Assembly (NCBI GenBank): GCA_000004695.1
Contig: CM000151.3
Span: 7,584,001-7,648,000 of the forward strand
Source of the DNA: Dictyostelium discoideum
Taxonomy: Eukaryota
Direction of reading: 5' to 3'
DNA: 64,000 nucleotides
Every line of letters begins with the position of its first letter. The stretch's first letter is position 1. The position numbers were made by a program, and so were the translations under genes. Positions 5,219 through 48,171 of this stretch are shown here, one piece after another. The notes under the pieces were generated by a model. That model was not told the DNA's origin. It searched no databases and saw only the letters and a list, made by a program, of their open reading frames with translations.

Positions 5219-7516
5219 TTATTTGTTAATTTTTTTTAACTTGTTTAAAAGAACACTTTCACCTTTTTTACGATAAATTAAAAAACCAATTGCACCAATT
5301 GCGGAAACACCAACAACACTTGCAACTACAGCGACTGGGATAACATAACTTTTTCTTCCATCTTTTGAATTACCACATTCATTTTTAAATTCTGGACTAA
5401 TTAAGACTGAGAAATCTGGATCAATGATACAAGATTCAATGCAATGTGGTAAATCTAATGAAATTGAAATTGAATCCTTACTTTCATTTTTCATTGAAGT
5501 TAATAAATATGTTGGTCTTCCGTCTGAAACTAACTTGTTTATAAATCTTCCTTCTAAAATTTTATTATTTTTTGAAATTTTAATATAATTGAAAGTAGAT
5601 TCACCATCTTTATTATTGATTGTATTAATTGATGTATCCATTTCATTACATTCATTATCATCTGAATTTATTTGATCTACTGATGAAACTAATTCTAATT
5701 TTAAAGTATTTAAGTTATTTTTGTATGAATAGTTATAAATTCCAATACTAAATTTAATTGAACCATATTGTAAATTAAATGTTTCATCTGCAAATGTATA
5801 TTCTTTACCATTTCTGTTTGTAATTTCTTCAATCTTTGAAATAATTGAGCAATTGCTTTGAATTGTTTGAGATAATGTGTAAATAATTTCATTTTTGCTG
5901 TTTGTTGAATTTGTTGTCCAATTGTTTCGAAGAGAATATGTTGCTACTATATTACCATTAAAATCAATTTCGTATAATGATTTGAAAAAGATTTGGAATT
6001 GAACTTCTTGATTTGAAATTGTTGTATTACCAGTACCTGGATCGACACCAGTATCAGTTGGTGGGTTTCCGTTATTACCTCCATCGCTATCGCTATTGCT
6101 TCCTCCGTTATTACCTCCGCCTGGATTAATGATACCACTACAATCTGCACCATTGAATCCATTATTACATTTACATTGACCATTTAAAGTATTGCATGTA
6201 CCTTGATTTGAACATTTATTTGGACATGTTTGGTTATTAATATTTAAATATTGATATTTATCATAAGAGTATGTAATGTTATTTTGAGTTACAACTACAA
6301 GCTTTACACCAAAACCTGGAGGTGCTGTACAATTTAAAACTGTTGTTGAATTATATAGTAATGGACATGGTAAATTTCCAATTGTGATTGATAGATTATT
6401 ATGAGTATCACCAAAGAAGCCAATAAAGCTTGCAACACCACCATTGGTTGTTGAAGGTATTGTTGAAGTTATATAATGGTATGGTATTAAACAAGTTGGA
6501 CCTGACCAAGAATTTTCTTTACAATTGCATTCACCTTTAGTTGTGTCACATACACCATTTGAATTACAATCTAGTGGATCACACTCAATAAATAATATTG
6601 AACAATCACTACCTCGATGAGATGAATCACAAATACATTCACCTATGGTAGTATTGCAATAACCATTACCTGAACAATCTGGAACTGAACATTCAATACC
6701 TAAGCAATCACTACCTATAAATCCTGGTAAACATTTACAAGTACCTGAACTTAAATCGCAAATTGAATTAACTCCAACTGATGTTGAACAATCATTTGGA
6801 CAAACTTGATTATTATCGAAATTTGATTCGATCTTAATATATGCTTTTACATTGAATGAATCTTTTTCAATTGAAATTATTTGTAATGGAATTGTTGAAT
6901 TTGAAATTGGTAATTGTTTACCACTTTCCATTGTACATTGTGCTCCGAAAAAGTCACTACTTGTAATTGTTGAACAATTACCTACATTTTGAATTTGAAC
7001 TTGTTGATTTGTAAATCCTAAATAACTTGAAAAATGTGTACCACTTACTTGAATTTCATTACCTGTGCTTTTAATTAAAACTGATTTTATAATTGGTGGA
7101 ATATTATAATTTGTTGGGAATGTATATGTAACATTATTTGGAGTTGTGAATAAAACTGGAAAATATTCAACATTTTTCAAATTATTATTAGCTCCTACCA
7201 TTGTTGCTGTATAATTTTTACCATTTTGATTAATAACATATGTTGTTGGATCTAATGAAATTGTTAAATTAATTTTCCATAATGTTACATCGAATCCAAT
7301 ATCATTACCAGTTACCATTACTTTATTAAATATACCATCATTAATTAATTCTACTTTTGGTCTAAATGTTGTGCATGGTGTATTTGTATTAAAGTTTGAA
7401 AACTTATTACTAGCAAATCTTGAAAACATTGATTTTTGTGTTAATTTTGAATAACTATTTACTGTTGTTACATTAAAATAACATGCAAAACAAGATGGAA
7501 CTAATCTGAATATTTG

Positions 7517-9643: not shown

Positions 9644-12600
9644 TTATTTGTTAATTTTTTTTAACTTGTTTAAAAGAACACTTTCACCTTTTTTACGATA
9701 AATTAAAAAACCAATTGCACCAATTGCGGAAACACCAACAACACTTGCAACTACAGCGACTGGGATAACATAACTTTTTCTTCCATCTTTTGAATTACCA
9801 CATTCATTTTTAAATTCTGGACTAATTAAGACTGAGAAATCTGGATCAATGATACAAGATTCAATGCAATGTGGTAAATCTAATGAAATTGAAATTGAAT
9901 CCTTACTTTCATTTTTCATTGAAGTTATTAAATATGTTGGTCTTCCGTCTGAAACTAACTTGTTTATAAATCTTCCTTCTAAAATTTTATTATTTTTTGA
10001 AATTTTAATATAGTTGAAAGTAGATTCACCATCTTTATTATTGATTGTATTAATTGATGTATCCATTTCATTACATTCATTATCATCTGAATTTATTTGA
10101 TCTACTGATGAAACTAATTCTAATTTTAAAGTATTTAAATTATTTTTGTATGAATAGTTATGAATTCCAATACTAAATTTAATTGAACCATATTGTAAAT
10201 TAAATGTTTCATCTGCAAATGTATATTCTTTACCATTTCTGTTTGTAATTTCTTCAATCTTTGAAATAATTGAGCAATTGCTTTGAATTGTTTGAGATAA
10301 TGTGTAAATAATTTCATTTTCGGTATCTGTTGAGTTTGTTGTCCAACTGTTTTGAAGAGAATATGTTGCTACTATATTACCATTAAAATCAATTTCGTAT
10401 AATGATTTGAAAAAGATTTGGAATTGAACTTCTTGATTTGAAATTGTTGTATTACCAGTACCTGGATCGACACCAGTATCAGTTGGTGGGTTTCCGTTAT
10501 TACCTCCATCGCTATCGCTATTGCTTCCTCCGTTATTACCTCCGCCTGGATTAATGATACCACTACAATCTGCACCATTGAATCCATTATTACATTTACA
10601 TTGACCATTTAAAGTATTGCATGTACCTTGATTTGAACATTTATTTGGACATGTTTGATTGTTAATATTTAAATATTGATATTTATTATAAGAGTATGTA
10701 ATGTTATTTTGAGCTACAACTACAAGCTTTACACCAAAACCTGGAGGTGCTGTACAATTTAAAACTGTTGTTGAATTATATAGTAATGGACATGGTAAAT
10801 TTCCAATTGTGATTGATAGATTATTATGAGTATCACCAAAGAAGCCAATAAAGCTTGCAACACCACCATTGGTTGTTGAAGGTATTGTTGAAGTTATATA
10901 ATGGTATGGTATTAAACAAGTTGGACCTGACCAAGAATTTTCTTTACAATTGCATTCACCTTTAATTGTATCACACACACCGTTTGAATTACAATCTACT
11001 GGATCACAATCAATATATGGTAATGAACAGTCACTACCTTGATTTGAAGGTCCACAATCACAAGTACCAGTTTGATTATTACATGTATTTAAACCACCAT
11101 TACATGCTACCCCAGTAGTCATTGGACATTCAACAAATGGTACTGAGCAATCATTTCCTTGGTGAGATGAATCACAATTACAAATACCAGTTTCATTATT
11201 ACATGTATTTAAACCACCATTGCATGGTAATCCATTAGATTCTGGACAATCAATTACTGGTAATGAGCAATCACTTCCTTGGTGAGATGAATCACAATTA
11301 CAAGTACCAGTTTGATTATTACATGTATTTAAACCACCATTACATGGCAATCCATTAGATGTTGGGCAATCAATTACTGGCAATGAGCAATCACTACCTT
11401 GATTTGAAGGTCCACAATCACAAGTACCAGTTTGATTATTACATGTATTTAAACCACCGTTACATGGTAATGAACTGAATATTGGACATGGAACCAATGG
11501 CAATGAGCAATTACTTCCTTGAAACGATGAGCTACAATTACAAGTACCAGTTTGGTTATTACATGTATTTAAACCACCGTTACATGGTAATCCACTAACT
11601 ATTGGGCATTCAATCAATGGTAATGAGCAATCACTTCCTTGGTGAGATGAATCACAACCACAAGTACCAGTTTGATTATTACAAGTGTTTAGACCGCCGT
11701 TACATGGTAATCCACTAACAATTGGGCATTCAATCAATGGTAATGAGCAATCATTTCCTTGGTGAGATGAATCACAACCACAAGTACCAGTTTTATTATT
11801 ACAAGTGTTTAAACCACCGTTACATGGTAATCCACTAACTATTGGGCATTCAATCAATGGTAATGAGCAATCATTTCCTTGGTGAGATGAATCACAAGTA
11901 CAAATACCAGTTTGATTATTACAAGTATTTGAGCCGCCATTACATGGTAAAGAGCCATAAATTGGACAAGGAATGAGTGGTAATAAACAATCGCTACCTT
12001 GATAAGATGAATTACAAATACATTCACCTATGGTATAATCACAATGACCATTACCTGAACAATCTGGAACTGAACATTCAATACCTAAACAATCACTACC
12101 AACAAATCCTGGTAAACATTTACAAGCACCTGAACTTAAATCGCAAATTGAATTAACTCCAACTGATGTTGAACAATCATTTGGACAAACTTGATTATTA
12201 TCGAAATTTGATTCGATCTTAATATATGCTTTTACATTGAATGAATCTTTTTCAATTGAAATTATTTGTAATGGAATTGTTGAATTTGAAATTGGTAATT
12301 GTTTACCACTTTCCATTGTACATTGTGCTCCGAAAAAGTCACTACTTGTAATTGTTGAACAATTACCTACATTTTGAATTTGAACTTGTTGATTTGTAAA
12401 TCCTAAATAACTTGAAAAATGTGTACCACTTACTTGAATTTCATTACCTGTGCTTTTAATTAAAACTGATTTTATAATTGGTGGAATATTATAATTTGTT
12501 GGGAATGTATATGTAACATTATTTGGAGTTGTGAATAAAACTGGAAAATATTCAACATTTTTCAAATTATTATTAGCTCCTACCATTGTTGCTGTATAAT

Positions 12601-14450
12601 TTTTACCATTTTGATTAATAACATATGTTGTTGGATCTAATGAAATTGTTAAATTAATTTTCCATAATGTTACATCGAATCCAATATCATTACCAGTTAC
12701 CATTACTTTATTAAATATACCATCATTAATTAATTCTACTTTTGGTCTAAATGTTGTGCATGGTGTTTTTGTATTAAAGTTTGAAAACTTATTACCAGAA
12801 AATCTTGTCAACATTGATTTTTGTGTTAATTTTGAATAACTATTTATCGTTGTTACATTAAAATAACACGCAAAACAAGATGGAATTAATCTAAATTTTT
12901 AAATTAATAAAAAAAAATAAAGATTAGTAAGTAATTTGAATAAATAAATAATTTATAATCAACATACCCTGTTAAATTTCCAGTTGGGACAGATAGTTCA
13001 GTTGTGCACCATGAATTATCAACTGTACCAACAAAAAGATTTGGAGAATTTGTAAAATAATATGAACCACCAGAACCTAGAAATTTTGTGGGGAATTGTG
13101 TATTTTTTATTGAATTAAAGAAGGAAACTGTAGAATATGGACCCATATTAAGGTTATTTGGAAAAACCGTCAAGTTACCTGATAAAAAATTAAAATCACA
13201 ACTCTCTGGAGGAATTATTGGGAGTGCCCCATTCAAATGATAAAGATTTCCTGGAAAAAGGGTAATTGCTGTATAGGTGTGATTAACGAATGATGACATA
13301 TCATAATATTCAGTTGGTGCATCAAGTGTCGCACTTAGATAAAATTTTGATACTTTTGAATTGTCAAATAAATATTGATTAATTTGTCCAAGAGCACGGT
13401 ATATTGATAATTGATTGGATGATATTGTTTTCATAAAATTAATAGTTGAAAAATCAAATATTAGAGAAAATTGTAAATTTATATTGTTTAATTTGTACAT
13501 TGAAAAAGATACTATGTTATGTACATTGGCATAAAAATTCCCTAATACTGAGGTTCCAGATGGATTTGCGCCATCAGAGTTTAGATAAACATATACATTA
13601 GCAGGAGAAATGTCCAAATTATATATTCCACTATTAATATGCTCCAATCTCAATGTTGTACCATTTAAATCATTTGAATGTATAGTCCTTTTTATTTTTA
13701 AAATAAAAAAAAATAAAAAAAATAAAAAAAATAAAAAAATAAATAAATGAATAAAATTTATGTAAGAAATAAGAATTAGATTTTAGTTTTTTTTTTTTTT
13801 TTGTTTTTTTTTTTTTTATAGAAAATAAATATTTACAAGGATCTAATTGAAGGTAAAGGTTGAGTAATTCCACCTACCACTCCATTAATATTGATATACT
13901 TTGCTATTTGGACACTGGATATTTTTGTATATATAAAATCTGGTGATACTTTTAAATTATTAACCGTTCTTTAATAATAATAATTTTCAATTTTTTAGTA
14001 AATAATTTTGTTGAGAAAAAAAAAAAAAAAAAATTTAAAATACTTACAATTCCACCATCAGAGTAAAACAGGTTGAGAAATTAGATGGAAATAATATATT
14101 ATTTGTACCACCAGGTATTAAAAACCATCCTAAAAATAAAAAAATAAAAAAATAAAAATTTAATATTTATTAGTTTTGATATTAAATTAAAAAAAAAAAT
14201 TAAAAAATTAAAAAATTAAAATTAAACTTATTTCTTTTGAATATAAATTCCCAGAACAAGAAATATCAATTGTGGTGGTTGACAAATGTTTGAATAAAAA
14301 TCGAATGTGTCTTTTGTGAAATTTGGTAGAATAAAAATTTCATTTAAATAACCAACACGTATATTCATCTGGAACAAGAGGGGGGACTTGAGAATAACAC
14401 CCGACAATTATTAAAAATATAAAAAAAAGTTGAGATTTAATTAAAACCAT
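9644..14450 (-). CDS. gene B: tandem paralog of gene A (IPT/TIG + EGF-like repeat type-I membrane protein) with an expanded Cys-repeat array; 5' exon 1 appears decayed
   Basis: Exons (minus): 12890..9644 (1082 codons; ORF 9644-12814 extended to the acceptor aaatttag), 13687..12968 (donor GTATGT), 13968..13837 (…TVNNLKVSPDFIYTKISSVQIAKYININGVVGGITQPLPSIRSL; donor GTAAAT), 14129..14048 (GWFLIPGGTNNILFPSNFSTCFTLMVE; donor GTAAGT). Putative exon 1 is 14450..about 14235 (MVLIKSQLFFIFLIIVGCYSQVPPLVPDEYTCW...). Exon 1 has an in-frame TGA, a frameshift relative to gene A, no recognisable GT donor (GAAATAAGTTTAA where A has CGTAAATTAAT), and a phase mismatch with exon 2 (82 nt vs 81 nt in A). Confidence 0.6.
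11000..12000 (-). repeat. in-frame 120-bp (40-aa) tandem repeat array, about 8 copies, encoding CDSSHQG(N/S)DCSLPLIECPIVSGLPCNGGLNTCNNQTGTC units
   Basis: Consecutive copies are 90-100% identical at the nt level (e.g. 11161-11280 vs 11281-11400). The array is absent from gene A, which jumps from CICDSSHRGSDCSILFIECDPLDCNSNG directly to the shared C-terminal region. Confidence 0.85.
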
Positions 14451-14465
14451 TTTTTTTAATTATTG

Positions 14466-14517
<52 letters not shown>

Positions 14518-16197
14518 TAAAAAAAAAAAAAAAAAAAACCTTTCTAATATTCAGATGACTTTTTAATATTGATTAAAAAAAAAAAAAAAAAAAAAAAACC
14601 TGTTACATTGGGATGACGAAAAAAAAAAAAAAATAAAAAAAAAATAAAATTAATTGGTGAAGTGTTGTCTGGTTTTTGAATGGTTGGTTTTTAAAAAAAA
14701 ACGAAGAAAAATGCATTTTTTTTTATTAAATGTCAAAATATCTTTAAAAATATCTTTTTTTCATTTGATTTCGTCGATGATGTTTTGATTTTTTTTTTTT
14801 GTGCGTCAAAACGATCGTTCTTTTTTTTTTCCAAGCATTTCATAGAACGATTGTTTTTGTAAATTGGTATTTTTTTTTTTTTATTTTATTTTAAACGAAT
14901 ATGAACCAGTTTAAAAATTTCCTTTGATACCACCTGTTGACTGTTGTTTTTTTTTTTAAAAAAAAAAAAGATATTTTTTTTTTTCCATTATTTTCAATAT
15001 TAATTCTTAAAATATTTTTTTTTTTTTTTTTTTTTTTATTATTATTGAAAACTAAATAAAAGAGTATTTAATTTTTGGGGGAAACTTATATTTTTTTTTT
15101 TTTTTTTTTTTTTTTCCAAACAAAAATATTTTTTCCTAAAAAATCAAAAATTTTTAATAATTTGAAAATTTCCCCAAATTTTTTTTTTACAAATTTCCCG
15201 GGGGAAAAACCAAAGTATAACAATTTTTCGGGTATAGTATGGGGAGTTCCCCAAACTTTCCCCCCAATTAAATTTTTCCTAGTAAATCCTTTTTTCTAAA
15301 AAAAAAAAAAAAACCCAAAATTTTGCTTTGGGAAATTAATTTTTTAAAAAGTTTTATTTTAGTATCACTATTATTTTTAAGTTTTCTAAACAAAAGGGTT
15401 GTATTTTTATCCTTTTTAAAAATATTGGTTTTTTTTTTTTTTTTTTTTTTTTTTGATCAAATTTTTTTTTTTCTTGTTTTTTTAACCAAAAAAAAAAATA
15501 AAAAAAAAAAAATAAAAAATAAAAAATAAAAAAAATGGATTTTTTTTTTTTTAATTAAAATCTTTTTAAATTGATTCAACTTATTGCTTGGTGATTAAAT
15601 TAGATTATTTCGCAATTATTTTCTAGTATTGAAAATTAATTTTAATTTTTTATACTTTTTAAAAAAAAACAAAAAAAAAAAAAATAAATTAAAATTATTT
15701 TCAATTGATTTTTGGGGGTATAAATATCTTTTTTTAATTAGACACACATTTCAAAACATAAATGGCATCTTAAAAAAAAAAAAATAATAAAAATAATAAA
15801 AAAAATAAAACTCTAATTCGCAATAATCCTCCTATTTCAATATTAATATAACATAATAATACAAGCTTATTTTTAGTTTTTTTAATATAACCTTAGTAAT
15901 AAAAAAAAAAAAAAGATATTTTTAATAAAAAAAAAATCTAAATTTATTTTTTTATTTTTTTTATTTATTTTTTTATTTTTTAAAGGTGGGTCTGTTAATT
16001 TTTTTTTTTTTTTGAAAATAATTAAACAATAAAAACACTTTTTTTTATTTTTTATTTTTTTTAAATTAATTACAACAAAAAAAAATAAAAAATAAAAAAA
16101 AAAAAAAAAGAAAAATTCGAACCCCTTTTATCTTTTGAAAGTAAATTAAAAAAAAAAAGTGTTTATTTTTAACTATAGCATTAACCTTTTTTAAAAA

Positions 16198-17184
16198 ATG
16201 GTATGGAATAAAAAAAAAAAAAAAAAAATAATTATCATAAAATATATATATGTACTAATTTATTATTTATTAAAAATATATATAGGTAGAATTTACATTA
16301 TTAGAAGATGATGTTTATTTCCATGATTATATAGCAGATTTCATTCCTTTATTTGTATTATCAATTTTACTGGAATTTGTTATAAATGTATTTTTTAAAA
16401 AGAAAAAGAATTATCACTCATTAAGTGATTCATTAAGTAGTATGGGTACAGGTATATCAACAGTAGTTTTAGAAAGAATTGTACCATATACAATTTTATC
16501 ATCAATTGAATTTGTAGGTGCCGTATATATTTATAAACATTATAGATTTTTCGATGTTTCCGAATCTTCAATATTAGCCTGGATAATTTGTTTACTAGCT
16601 GTTGATTTTGTTTATTATTGTAAGTTTTTATATTTTTAAGTTTTTATATTTTTATATTTTTAATGAGGAAAAGAGTGTGTTGTGTGTTGTGATAATATAT
16701 ATAAATTACTAACACATATGTGTTTATTTTATTTTATTTTATTTTTTTTTTTAAAAAAAAAGGGTTTCATAGATTTGCACATGAAATTAATTTTATGTGG
16801 GCAACACATGTTACACATCATTCAAGTGATAAATATAATTTAACAACAGCATTAAGACAAAGTATATTTCAAATGTATTTCTCATGGGTATTATTTTTAC
16901 CAATTGGATTTTTCATACCACCAGGTATTTATGTATTTCATAAACAATTCAATACAATCAATCAATTTTGGATTCATACACAATTGATTGGTAAATTAGC
17001 ATGGCCAATTGAATTTATAATGAATACACCATCACATCATAGAGTTCATCATGGACGTAATCCAAAATATTTAGATAAAAACTATGCTGGTACATTAATA
17101 ATTTGGGATAGATTATTTGGAACATTCCAAGAGGAAGATACTATCACCAACACCACCACCACCACCACCAACACCACTGGTGAA

Positions 17185-17246
<62 letters not shown>

Positions 17247-17889
17247 AAATCAACGTGTTTTCTATGGGTTAGTACACCAATTTGAATCAAGTGATCCAAC
17301 ATGGTCACAAGTTCATCATTGGTTTGAAATTTATGAAAAACAAAAACAATATAACTCGGTTAAAGAGAAATTGAAATCAATTTTCTATGGGCCAGGTTGG
17401 AAAAAAGGTGATACCAATAGAATGGGTGATTTATCAAGTATTCCAATACCAACTGAAAAAGATGACCAATTACGAATTAAAGCATCATTATCAACATCAT
17501 TAAATATTTATTTGTTTATTCATTATTTTTTAGCATCATTTTTAGCATTGTCATTACGTTCACTATTTGAGGATAAAATTGGATCTGCAAATGTAACTTG
17601 TTCTTTTATTTTCGTATATTTCGGTTTAACTTCATTTGGTGCAATCTTTGATAGAAAATGGTATGCAATGATATTAGAACATTTTAGATTATGGTCTTTC
17701 ATTCTATACACTCTGTACTTAGAATCAACCAATCCAATCATATCTCAACAATTTCAAATCATCTCACTATTAAGATACATTTATTTCGTATCTTCATTAT
17801 TTTTAATTTTAAAGAAATTATCACCTTTATCAATTCTATCAAATTATTTAAAATCTTCAAAGAAATTATTAAATAATAAATTAGATTAG
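16198..17889 (+). CDS. alkylglycerol monooxygenase (AGMO/TMEM195)-like fatty-acid hydroxylase superfamily protein; 3 exons (16198..16200, 16286..16619, 16763..17889)
   Basis: Histidine boxes HRFAHE, HVTHHS and HRVHHGRN. Strong colinearity with human AGMO: ...VDFVYY|W|FHRFAHEINFMWATHVTHHSSDKYNLTTALRQS... and NTPSHHRVHHGRNPKYLDKNYAGTLIIWDRLFGTF. Intron 2 (GTAAGT 16620 ... AG 16762) splits the Trp codon (t|gg), recreating the conserved YYWFHR. The open frame upstream of Met16442 (VEFTLLEDDVYFHDYIADFIPLFVLSILLEF..., matching human QTLEEVPDYVKKATPFFISLMLLELV) has no ATG back to the stop at 16283. Proposed exon 1 is just the ATG at 16198, followed by GTATGG and an 85-bp AT-rich intron ending tatatatag. 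The (AAT)n at 17188-17250 encodes poly-Asn. Confidence 0.75.
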
Positions 17890-17898
17890 GAAACTTAC

Positions 17899-17933
<35 letters not shown>

Positions 17934-17972
17934 TAAATAAATTAAACCAAAAATAAAAATATATTTAAAATT

Positions 17973-19585
<1,613 letters not shown>

Positions 19586-20053
19586 TCTTTTAATATTATT
19601 ATTACTATTATTATCACTGCTACTACACTATATAAAAGTATTGTTTGTTTTTTTTTTTTTTTTTCTATTATTCGTTTTGTGTGTGTGAAGAAATAAAAAT
19701 AAAAAAATAAAAAATAAAAAAAAATAAAAAAATTTCAATCTAAAAAAAAAAAAAAAAAAAATAAAAATAAAATAAATTTAAAATTATAATATTAATTTAA
19801 ATAAAATAAATTAAAATAAAAAAAATATATATATATAAGATATTATAATAAAACAATTTAAATAATTAAAATTGAGAAAAAATAATAATTTTTCATCCAA
19901 ATATTGTTTATTTATGTTTATATATAGAATAAATAAAAAATGAAAAAAAAAAAAGCGGGAAAAAATAAAAATAACTAATTTTAGAAATACCCAAAACAAA
20001 ACCAACACACAATGACTTTTTTTTTTTTTTTTTTTTATTATTATTATGAATAT

Positions 20054-20790
20054 TTAATCATAACCAACTGGAATCATATCAGATAAAACTTCTTCTAAAA
20101 CTACTTTAATTTCTGAAGTTGAATCATCAGATAAAGTACATTTAACAAAAGTGCATTTAACTTTCATTTGAACCATTTCCAAAGCACCTCTCATTACACC
20201 ACATAGAATATTTGAATAGTAGAGTTTATGTTTATATTGATCTGGTAATTCGACGAAATCAATCAATGGATTATCTTCAATTGTTAAATGGAATTCCTTT
20301 CTATTTGCATCCCAATCACCAACATGAGCATTTACACCTAAAAACATTTTAAAACCAACTTTTGCAATAACTTCTGCTGTCTCTATAAAATCTGAACATC
20401 TACCAATACCTGATTTTGCTAAAAATTCTTCAATTAAACGAATTCCTATATTATATCCCATTTGTTCTAATTTTATATTAACTTGTTCAATATCTTCATA
20501 ATCTTTTATTAATTGTGTAACCAATGCTCCATATGTTAATGTGAATAATTCTGAATTCTATAATTTATTTAATTAATTAATTAATTAATTATGATTTTGA
20601 GATAATAAAAATAAAAATAATAATAATAATTTTTAAAAAAAAAAAAAAATAGTAATTAAAAATAAAAAAAAAAAATAAAAAAAAAAAAAAATGAAAATGG
20701 TAGCATATTTTTAAAAGAATTAAATCAACTTACAATTTTTTCAACTTTATTGAATACATCATTTCCTAATTTATCGTATTTTTTACTCAT
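20054..20790 (-). CDS. trappc3: TRAPP complex subunit Bet3 (TRAPPC3) ortholog; 2 exons (20790..20734, 20557..20054), 186 aa
   Basis: Exon 2 matches human TRAPPC3 almost residue for residue: ELFTLTYGALVTQLIKDYEDIEQVNIKLEQMGYNIGIRLIEEFLAKSGIGRCSDFIETAEVIAKVGFKMFLGV...LCGVMRGALEMVQMKV. Exon 1 is MSKKYDKLGNDVFNKVEKI, with donor GTAAGT (20733..) and acceptor aaattatag (AG 20559/20558). Confidence 0.9.
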
Positions 20791-47251: not shown

Positions 47252-48171
47252 GTTATCTTGTTTATTAATATTTTCATTAAAATCTAAAATACCATTATCT
47301 AAACCAGGTGGTTTAACTAATAATGATTTTGAATGCCAAAATTGTACCCAATCAATTGGTGTTTGATTATTATTATTAGTACTATTAGTACTATTGTTAT
47401 TAGGTGATTTTATACCGCCAGGTAAAAATGGTAAATTTGAAGTATTACCACGATGAAAATTATCTTTTGATATTGAATTACTCCATGGTCTATCTAATGA
47501 AGTTGAATTTGAAGAAGTTTTTTCAGTATTTAAGAAAACTTCATGATAGTTTGTAATTGAAATTGAATATTGAATCTTATCAATAACCAATTCAACTGTT
47601 GAACATGGAATTGATAATGTACGCTCTGCAAGTAATTTAAAATCCCAACTATCAGTATCAATATTTCTTGGCCATATTAAATATGATTGTCTCTTTTGTT
47701 CATCATCATCATTCAATTTATGACTTTCAATTGAAAAATCTAAATATTCTCTTCTTATATCTGATAATATTTCTTCTTTATCTGAAAAATTAAATAATTG
47801 GATACACTTTTTTTTAAAAAAAAAAATAAAAAAAAATAAAAAAATTAAAAAAATAAAAAAATTAAAAAAATAAAAAAAATAAAAAATTAGTTTATTTATA
47901 TAATAAATAATAATAAAAATAATCTTACATTATTTGGAATGGTTGGTGAAATTATTGATGATTGAGGAGCAATTGGTGTAATTTCAGGTTGAGCTGATAA
48001 ACCTGTAGGATTTACATACCAATTTGGTAAATCAAAGGATTCTACATTTGTGTTATTACTATTATTTTTAATACTACTATTTGATTTATTTACTGGTGTA
48101 GTGTTTGTTGATGTTATATTTTCTAAATTATTTAATTCTTCTAAAAATGAATCAATGTTTAATTCTATCAT
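43913..48171 (-). CDS. SKI2-type DExH-box RNA helicase (SKIV2L ortholog); 2 exons (48171..47929, 47806..43913), about 1378 aa
   Basis: Helicase core matches yeast Ski2/human SKIV2L: FDLDSFQKQAIVHMEQGESVFITAHTSAGKTVIAEYAIAMAAKNMTRAIYTSPIKALSNQKFRDF...LVLTTEILRSMLYKGADLIRDIEWVIFDEVHYLNDLERGVVWEEVIIMLPPYVKMVFLSATVSNPLEFAQWIGRTKQLPIYVIGTTKRPIPLEHY. The N-terminal LPFLPGGIK matches yeast LPFTPGGIP. Exon 1 (MIELNIDSFLEELNNLENIT...IPNN) ends at GTAAGA (47928). Exon 2 starts after aaaaaaaag (AG 47808/47807) with CIQLFNFSDKEEILSD.... The listed ORF start is a TTG read as Met. Poly-Q (47190-47250) and acidic inserts sit outside the motifs. Confidence 0.85.

Follow-up and report, generated by a model that had tools for sequence, protein, structure and literature searches.

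A predicted start-codon intron in the putative alkylglycerol monooxygenase gene of Dictyostelium discoideum

Start-codon introns and alkylglycerol monooxygenase

Start-codon introns are a described class of phase-0 introns that lie between the first and second codons of a gene (Nielsen and Wernersson 2006, BMC Genomics 7:256, PMC1626468). The class has been surveyed in vertebrates, arthropods, fungi and plants, a sample that holds no Amoebozoa, and was found to be enriched in short, lysine-rich and highly conserved proteins, for example ribosomal proteins (PMC1626468). The gene considered here lies in a 64-kb stretch of Dictyostelium discoideum DNA (64 000 nucleotides, hereafter the window), where a first reading of the letters had proposed that an alkylglycerol monooxygenase (AGMO) gene begins with an exon of a single codon, and had added that introns placed directly after the start codon are known in compact AT-rich genomes. 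Like the introns surveyed, AGMO intron 1 is of phase 0 and of spliceosomal type and directly follows the ATG, and its second codon starts with G, such that the TG|G junction resembles the proto-splice site discussed in PMC1626468. It differs from the class in two respects: the gene codes for a 487-aa multi-pass membrane enzyme, and in place of ancient conservation the intron appears to be young and restricted to group-4 Dictyostelium. The protein has no signal peptide-like N-terminus.

In animals AGMO (AGMO/TMEM195) is a tetrahydrobiopterin-dependent enzyme that cleaves ether lipids. The assignment of the window gene, on chromosome 2, as the D. discoideum AGMO/TMEM195 ortholog within the fatty-acid-hydroxylase superfamily is well supported by sequence comparison. 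The 487-aa model matches the Pfam family FA_hydroxylase (PF04116) with 103.8 bits (E=1.2e-29), and its score for the AGMO-specific C-terminal domain AGMP_C (PF24858), 22.6 bits (E=1.1e-4), is below the curated cut-off of 28.3; a precomputed PF24858 domain is present in the D. purpureum ortholog. Those non-dictyostelid eukaryotic relatives that carry names are called alkylglycerol monooxygenase or have generic names (E 1e-91 to 1e-78), and identity to animal AGMO is 36–40% over 85–95% of the length. The Dictyostelium protein shares with animal AGMO the full set of His boxes (HRFAHE, HVTHH, SHHRVHH) and the Glu after the first box, an almost identical NTPSHHRVHHGRNP.Y.DKNYAG block and a hydrophobic C-terminal domain, and residues H115, H119, E120, H128, H131 and H132 do not vary among the aligned sequences. 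It differs in a shorter N-terminus before the conserved xDY motif (about 13 residues, as opposed to about 36 in primates) and in a poly-Asn insertion that animal AGMO lacks. The Dictyostelium protein would be expected to have alkylglycerol monooxygenase activity.

Structure of the gene and of its 5' end

The features of the gene are collected in Table 1. The coordinates that the original prediction had given for the ATG (16198–16200), the GTATGG donor, the TAG at 16283–16285 and the downstream Met at 16442 all match the window base for base. The ATG stands in an A-rich context (TTTAAAAAATGG). Without splicing, translation from this ATG would run into intron 1, whose length is not a multiple of 3, and would end after a 37-codon nonsense peptide that is out of frame with the enzyme. 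The frame of the enzyme is open from 16286 (GTA GAA TTT) and is without Met from codon 2 to codon 52, the first Met being codon 53.

Table 1. Features of the AGMO gene model in the window and coding exon 1 of its orthologs in group-4 Dictyostelium
Feature	Position	Strand	Description
Start codon ATG	16198..16200	+	Read directly from the sequence; whole coding part of exon 1
Intron 1	16201..16285	+	Phase-0 start-codon intron, 85 nt, 8.2% G+C
Intron 1 donor GTATGG	16201-16206	+	Directly abuts the ATG
Branch-like motif TACTAAT	16253-16259	+	In intron 1, 26-27 nt before the acceptor
In-frame TAG	16283..16285	+	5' closure of the downstream frame, also source of the acceptor AG
Intron 1 acceptor ATATAG, AG	16284-16285	+	Reads ...ATATATAG
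Exon 2	16286..16619	+	334 nt; Val-Glu-Phe start; residues 2-112
First in-frame Met in exon 2	16442..16444	+	Residue 53; start of any truncated model
Intron 2	16620..16762	+	143 nt, phase 1, GTAAGT...AAG; splits the Trp codon of YYW|FHR
Exon 3	16763..17889	+	Stop TAG 17887-17889
Wild D. discoideum ortholog			KAM9965927.1 (P0001), L001; 3-nt coding exon 1, 90 nt intron
D. firmibasis ortholog			RB653_003113 (P0002), L002; 3-nt coding exon 1, 98 nt intron
D. purpureum ortholog			DICPUDRAFT_51289 (P0003), L003; 3-nt coding exon 1, 76 nt intron

Exon 2 includes the first hydrophobic segment (about residues 17–38) and the beginning of the first His box, and exon 3 codes for the remainder of the fatty-acid-hydroxylase domain, the His boxes, the poly-Asn tract and the C-terminal hydrophobic domain. 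Intron 2 holds a perfect TACTAAC at 16707–16713, and an intron is found at the equivalent position in Polysphondylium violaceum. With both introns removed, the model is 1464 nt long and codes for 487 aa with the N-terminus MVEFTLLEDD....

The 5' end of the gene is very probably composed of the ATG at 16198–16200, an intron at 16201–16285 and an exon that starts at 16286. Splicing at 16200^16286 is what we infer from the sequence, and the same goes for the transcription start and for any regulatory role of intron 1. In the proposed mechanism the first exon of the transcript would be a 5' UTR that ends exactly with the AUG, the spliceosome would remove 16201–16285 (GTATGG...TACTAAT...ATAG), and the AUG would be joined to GUA (Val2), from which the 487-aa membrane protein would be translated. 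Unspliced RNA codes only for the 37-residue nonsense peptide, so splicing would be required for expression. The proposal that exon 1 consists of the ATG alone therefore has to be narrowed: it holds for the coding part, and fails for the physical first exon, since that exon must also hold the 5' UTR.

Upstream of the ATG, a short block that contains G+C (TTCGAACCCCTTTTATCTTTTGAAAG, window 16120–16150, + strand, about 50–80 nt from the ATG) is shared by the window and one wild D. discoideum isolate, the surrounding DNA being otherwise A/T-only; a role in the promoter or the 5' UTR is conceivable. The conserved upstream block TTCGAACCCC was considered as a tRNA remnant and rejected, ARAGORN and Rfam both being blank; across 14000–18500 neither program reported a tRNA or a known RNA family.

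Within exon 3, 20 AAT (Asn) codons stand in a row at window 17185–17244 (+ strand), between the catalytic and C-terminal domains. This run is found in the window and in the identical lab-strain locus L009 (see below) only; D. firmibasis, D. citrinum, D. dimigraforme and wild isolates of D. discoideum have no Asn run at this place. A trinucleotide expansion that kept the frame, took place recently and is probably specific to the strain lineage of the window and L009 would account for this distribution.

Alternative splice models and the role of chance

An exhaustive listing was made of all combinations of an ATG up to 1.5 kb upstream, a GT donor in frame with it and an AG acceptor as far as 16335 that keep the main frame open. 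Seven combinations were found, and only ATG16198|GT...AG|16286 unites a consensus donor with a short intron. The other six, all of them formally open, make up the rival reading in which a different upstream exon or acceptor provides the start. Five depend on non-consensus donors (GTCAAA, GTTCCC) and would reach back over more than 1 kb, for example to the ATG at 14711 or the ATG at 15239, with introns of 1.0–1.6 kb, far above the 85–143 nt of the introns verified in the window. The remaining one reads on from ATG16198 through intron 1 and would use 16286 as donor and 16334 as acceptor; the conserved FHDY motif is then lost in favour of a poly-K/I peptide. Not one of the six yields the Met-Val N-terminus that is common to the orthologs without the intron, and we regard this reading as very unlikely.

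The preferred intron is of the same type as validated introns nearby: two introns of the neighbouring DDB_G0277131, whose exact limits follow from the AX4 protein of that gene, are 89 and 94 nt long with 5–18% G+C. The start-codon arrangement is also rare by chance. Within the low-GC, non-coding-like 28% of the 64 kb, both strands counted, the only ATGGTA[AT]G is that at 16198, and when the local intergenic DNA was simulated with a first-order Markov model such a site arose in 0.16% of trials (usable 255 nt). A scan of the window for more ATG|GTA start-codon introns turned up no convincing case: the other candidates, among them a site at 47295 (minus strand), lie inside coding sequence in other frames and were rejected.

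Coding status of the codons before Met16442

Translation might instead start at Met16442, the earliest ATG in frame within the uninterrupted ORF, to give a 435-aa protein, in which case 16286–16441 would be 5' UTR that is open by accident. The 52 codons upstream of this Met have been compared at several evolutionary distances. Residues 15–53 align to residues 38–75 of gibbon AGMO (BLASTP E=3e-5), and in an alignment of seven dictyostelid, Capsaspora, Lingula and primate AGMO sequences Y16, P22, F24, E31, D49 and S53 are invariant, which upholds the homology that had been proposed for this stretch. Against D. firmibasis the 52 codons carry 16 substitutions, 13 of them at third positions, that fall into 11 synonymous and 3 non-synonymous codons; the three differences from one wild isolate of D. 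discoideum are without exception synonymous. Residues 15–40 hold the most hydrophobic 19-residue stretch of the whole protein (Kyte-Doolittle mean 2.42), so a start at Met53 would cost the first membrane segment, as had been foreseen, and the N-terminal segment upstream of Met53 is contained in all dictyostelid orthologs. Judged by their pattern of substitution and conservation, the 52 codons are coding, and a start at Met16442 is thus highly improbable, against the start at ATG 16198 that we favour.

Orthologous genes and the history of intron 1

Annotated orthologs were retrieved by a homolog search from wild D. discoideum, D. firmibasis, D. purpureum, Tieghemostelium lacteum and P. violaceum, and likewise from Acytostelium subglobosum, Cavenderia fasciculata and Heterostelium album; their clusters also contained proteins of D. 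citrinum, D. dimigraforme and additional isolates. Their exon structures were obtained by solving the encoding DNA exactly against each protein. Comparison with other dictyostelids had been put forward as a check on the one-codon exon, and it gave a positive answer: a 3-nt coding exon followed by an intron of 76–98 nt is present in all three group-4 species (Table 1). The group-4 orthologs (P0001–P0003 and L009) agree with the window in coding exon 1, in the positions of introns 1 and 2 and in the Val at the start of exon 2, which begins with GTA or GTG in L001, L002 and L003; P0001–P0003 differ from the window in the length and sequence of intron 1. Every group-4 protein retrieved has the N-terminus MVEF. 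The lengths of intron 1 in the window, L001, L002 and L003 leave remainders of 1, 0, 2 and 1 when divided by three, and these differences indicate that the intron is non-coding. ATGGTATGGAAT is kept in wild D. discoideum and in D. firmibasis, though the DNA upstream of it cannot be aligned, and the donor stands conserved amid otherwise unalignable DNA.

Hardly credible is the reading in which the juxtaposition of ATG and GT is coincidental, in a decaying pseudogene or a gene with non-AUG initiation: the donor has an atypical G at +6, where T is usual, and the exact protein is missing from the protein collection, but all three exons are undamaged and open and show purifying selection between strains and between species, no His-box residue is lost, the ATG and the donor are kept in D. 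firmibasis and D. purpureum, and the chance of such a site is about 0.002.

Outside group 4 the start-codon intron is absent. In T. lacteum (ATGGTC...) and P. violaceum (ATGGTT...) the Met and Val codons are contiguous, and the intron is absent from Acytostelium, Heterostelium and Cavenderia too, which makes five dictyostelid species without it. The Met-Val N-terminus of the 487-aa model matches that of these intron-less orthologs. In the dictyostelid phylogeny groups 1 and 2 stand opposite groups 3 and 4, and P. violaceum is placed next to group 4. On this tree a single gain in the group-4 ancestor would be the simplest account and more parsimonious than three losses. We therefore lean towards a lineage-specific gain of intron 1 in the group-4 ancestor, at the very boundary of Met1 and Val2 (ATG|GTN), which we hold to be somewhat better than an even bet; such a position would agree with the proto-splice-site argument made for the class (PMC1626468). 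As part of the same reading, the gain would be later than the separation of group 4 from the lineages of P. violaceum and Tieghemostelium, in which ATGGTN is still contiguous.

An origin of the intron by tandem duplication was also considered. It was suggested by the similarity of the 5' end of the intron (GTATGGAAT) to the start of exon 2 (GTAGAAT), and of the acceptor ATAG|GTA to ATG|GTA. The alignment scores were unremarkable: relative to null sets of GTA sites and of AT-rich AG sites from the same loci, the fraction of null scores at least as high as the observed score was 0.08–0.9. The observed scores are thus within the null, and a duplication origin was rejected as unsupported.

Annotation status

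The original prediction had expected gene finders to miss the intron and to start the protein at Met16442. This proved not to be the case, as all retrieved group-4 annotations have the MVEF start with a 3-nt coding exon. The window is lab-strain DNA. The 23-kb locus L009 of assembly GCA_054883475.1, part of a 2025 set of Dictyostelium genomes (PMC12745789), is base-identical to the window across the AGMO gene. The gene call there (L009 4248–5939, 487 residues, no stored Pfam hit) begins at exactly the base of ATG 16198, and its DNA is identical to window 16198–17889. For 487 aa to come from a span of 1692 nt, 228 nt of introns are needed, which is the sum of 85 and 143; the public model is therefore the model proposed here. 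The annotation of D. firmibasis was made with MAKER from genome-guided Trinity transcripts (~1576x mRNA-seq) and the D. discoideum reference proteome (PMC11193728), and its AGMO model thus provides indirect RNA support for the start-codon exon. With homology transfer from the AX4 proteome a possibility, the annotations that agree may depend on one another.

Several searches gave little. The exact 487-aa product had no match in a collection of 15 billion proteins, and no AX4 protein for the AGMO gene was among the homologs found. Neighbouring AX4 proteins are in the collection, EAL68841.1 and part of EAL68877.1 (DDB_G0277131) being exact matches to ORFs of the window, and the missing AX4 or 487-aa entry may be a mere database gap. 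A query with the N-terminal 154 aa returned three distant fragments only and no D. discoideum transcript products. The spliced-junction 23-mer, searched against metagenome contigs, gave one chance match in an unrelated repeat-protein gene, and the literature searched yielded no usable statement on introns after the ATG in Dictyostelium specifically.

Neighbouring genes

In the window the AGMO-like gene is placed between comC-like genes and the CHMP7 gene, near DDB_G0277131. The AGMO-like gene and a CHMP7 gene are adjacent and tail to tail in D. discoideum, D. firmibasis, T. lacteum, P. violaceum, C. fasciculata and H. album (L001, L002, L004, L005, L007 and L008), and in D. purpureum and T. 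lacteum an Nramp gene is found upstream of the AGMO-like gene. In D. discoideum assemblies the minus-strand neighbour (window ~17973–20780; L001 4741–7451; L009 6017–8831) is annotated as a single product of 673–680 aa with TRAPP (PF04051) and CHMP7 (PF25880, PF03357) domains. The other dictyostelids with an annotated neighbour at this place have a CHMP7-only protein of 467–531 aa, and the TRAPP-CHMP7 product could be either a merged gene model or a real fusion.

Two further observations concern gene models in and around the locus. The H. album ortholog P0010 (L008 1501–3167; 372 aa) is missing about 55 conserved residues (NLTTALRQ...HKQFNT) that are otherwise in all orthologs; its model has an unusually long 'intron' of 237 nt after a 44-nt exon, which was probably mis-called in an old annotation. 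Upstream of the AGMO gene, on the minus strand of the window, two large tandem ORFs (5219–7429 and 9644–12814) contain repeated units with ATGGTA at matching offsets; they correspond to ComC-type LRR/EGF proteins of related loci and look like tandem paralogs with internal repeats.

Implications

The model with an intron after the ATG is already in public annotation, and the intron belongs as an ordinary case to a class described before; as public annotations carry the right model no correction is needed. The choice of start codon matters for work on the protein. If the start were put at Met53, this putative enzyme of ether-lipid catabolism would lose conserved residues along with its first transmembrane segment, and a model truncated in this way would mislead topology, tagging and knock-out work in Dictyostelium. 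The distribution of intron 1 adds a small data point for studies on intron gain at start codons and, if the proposed history is true, the AGMO gene would illustrate cleanly how an intron-poor genome can gain an intron at a proto-splice site of a start codon.
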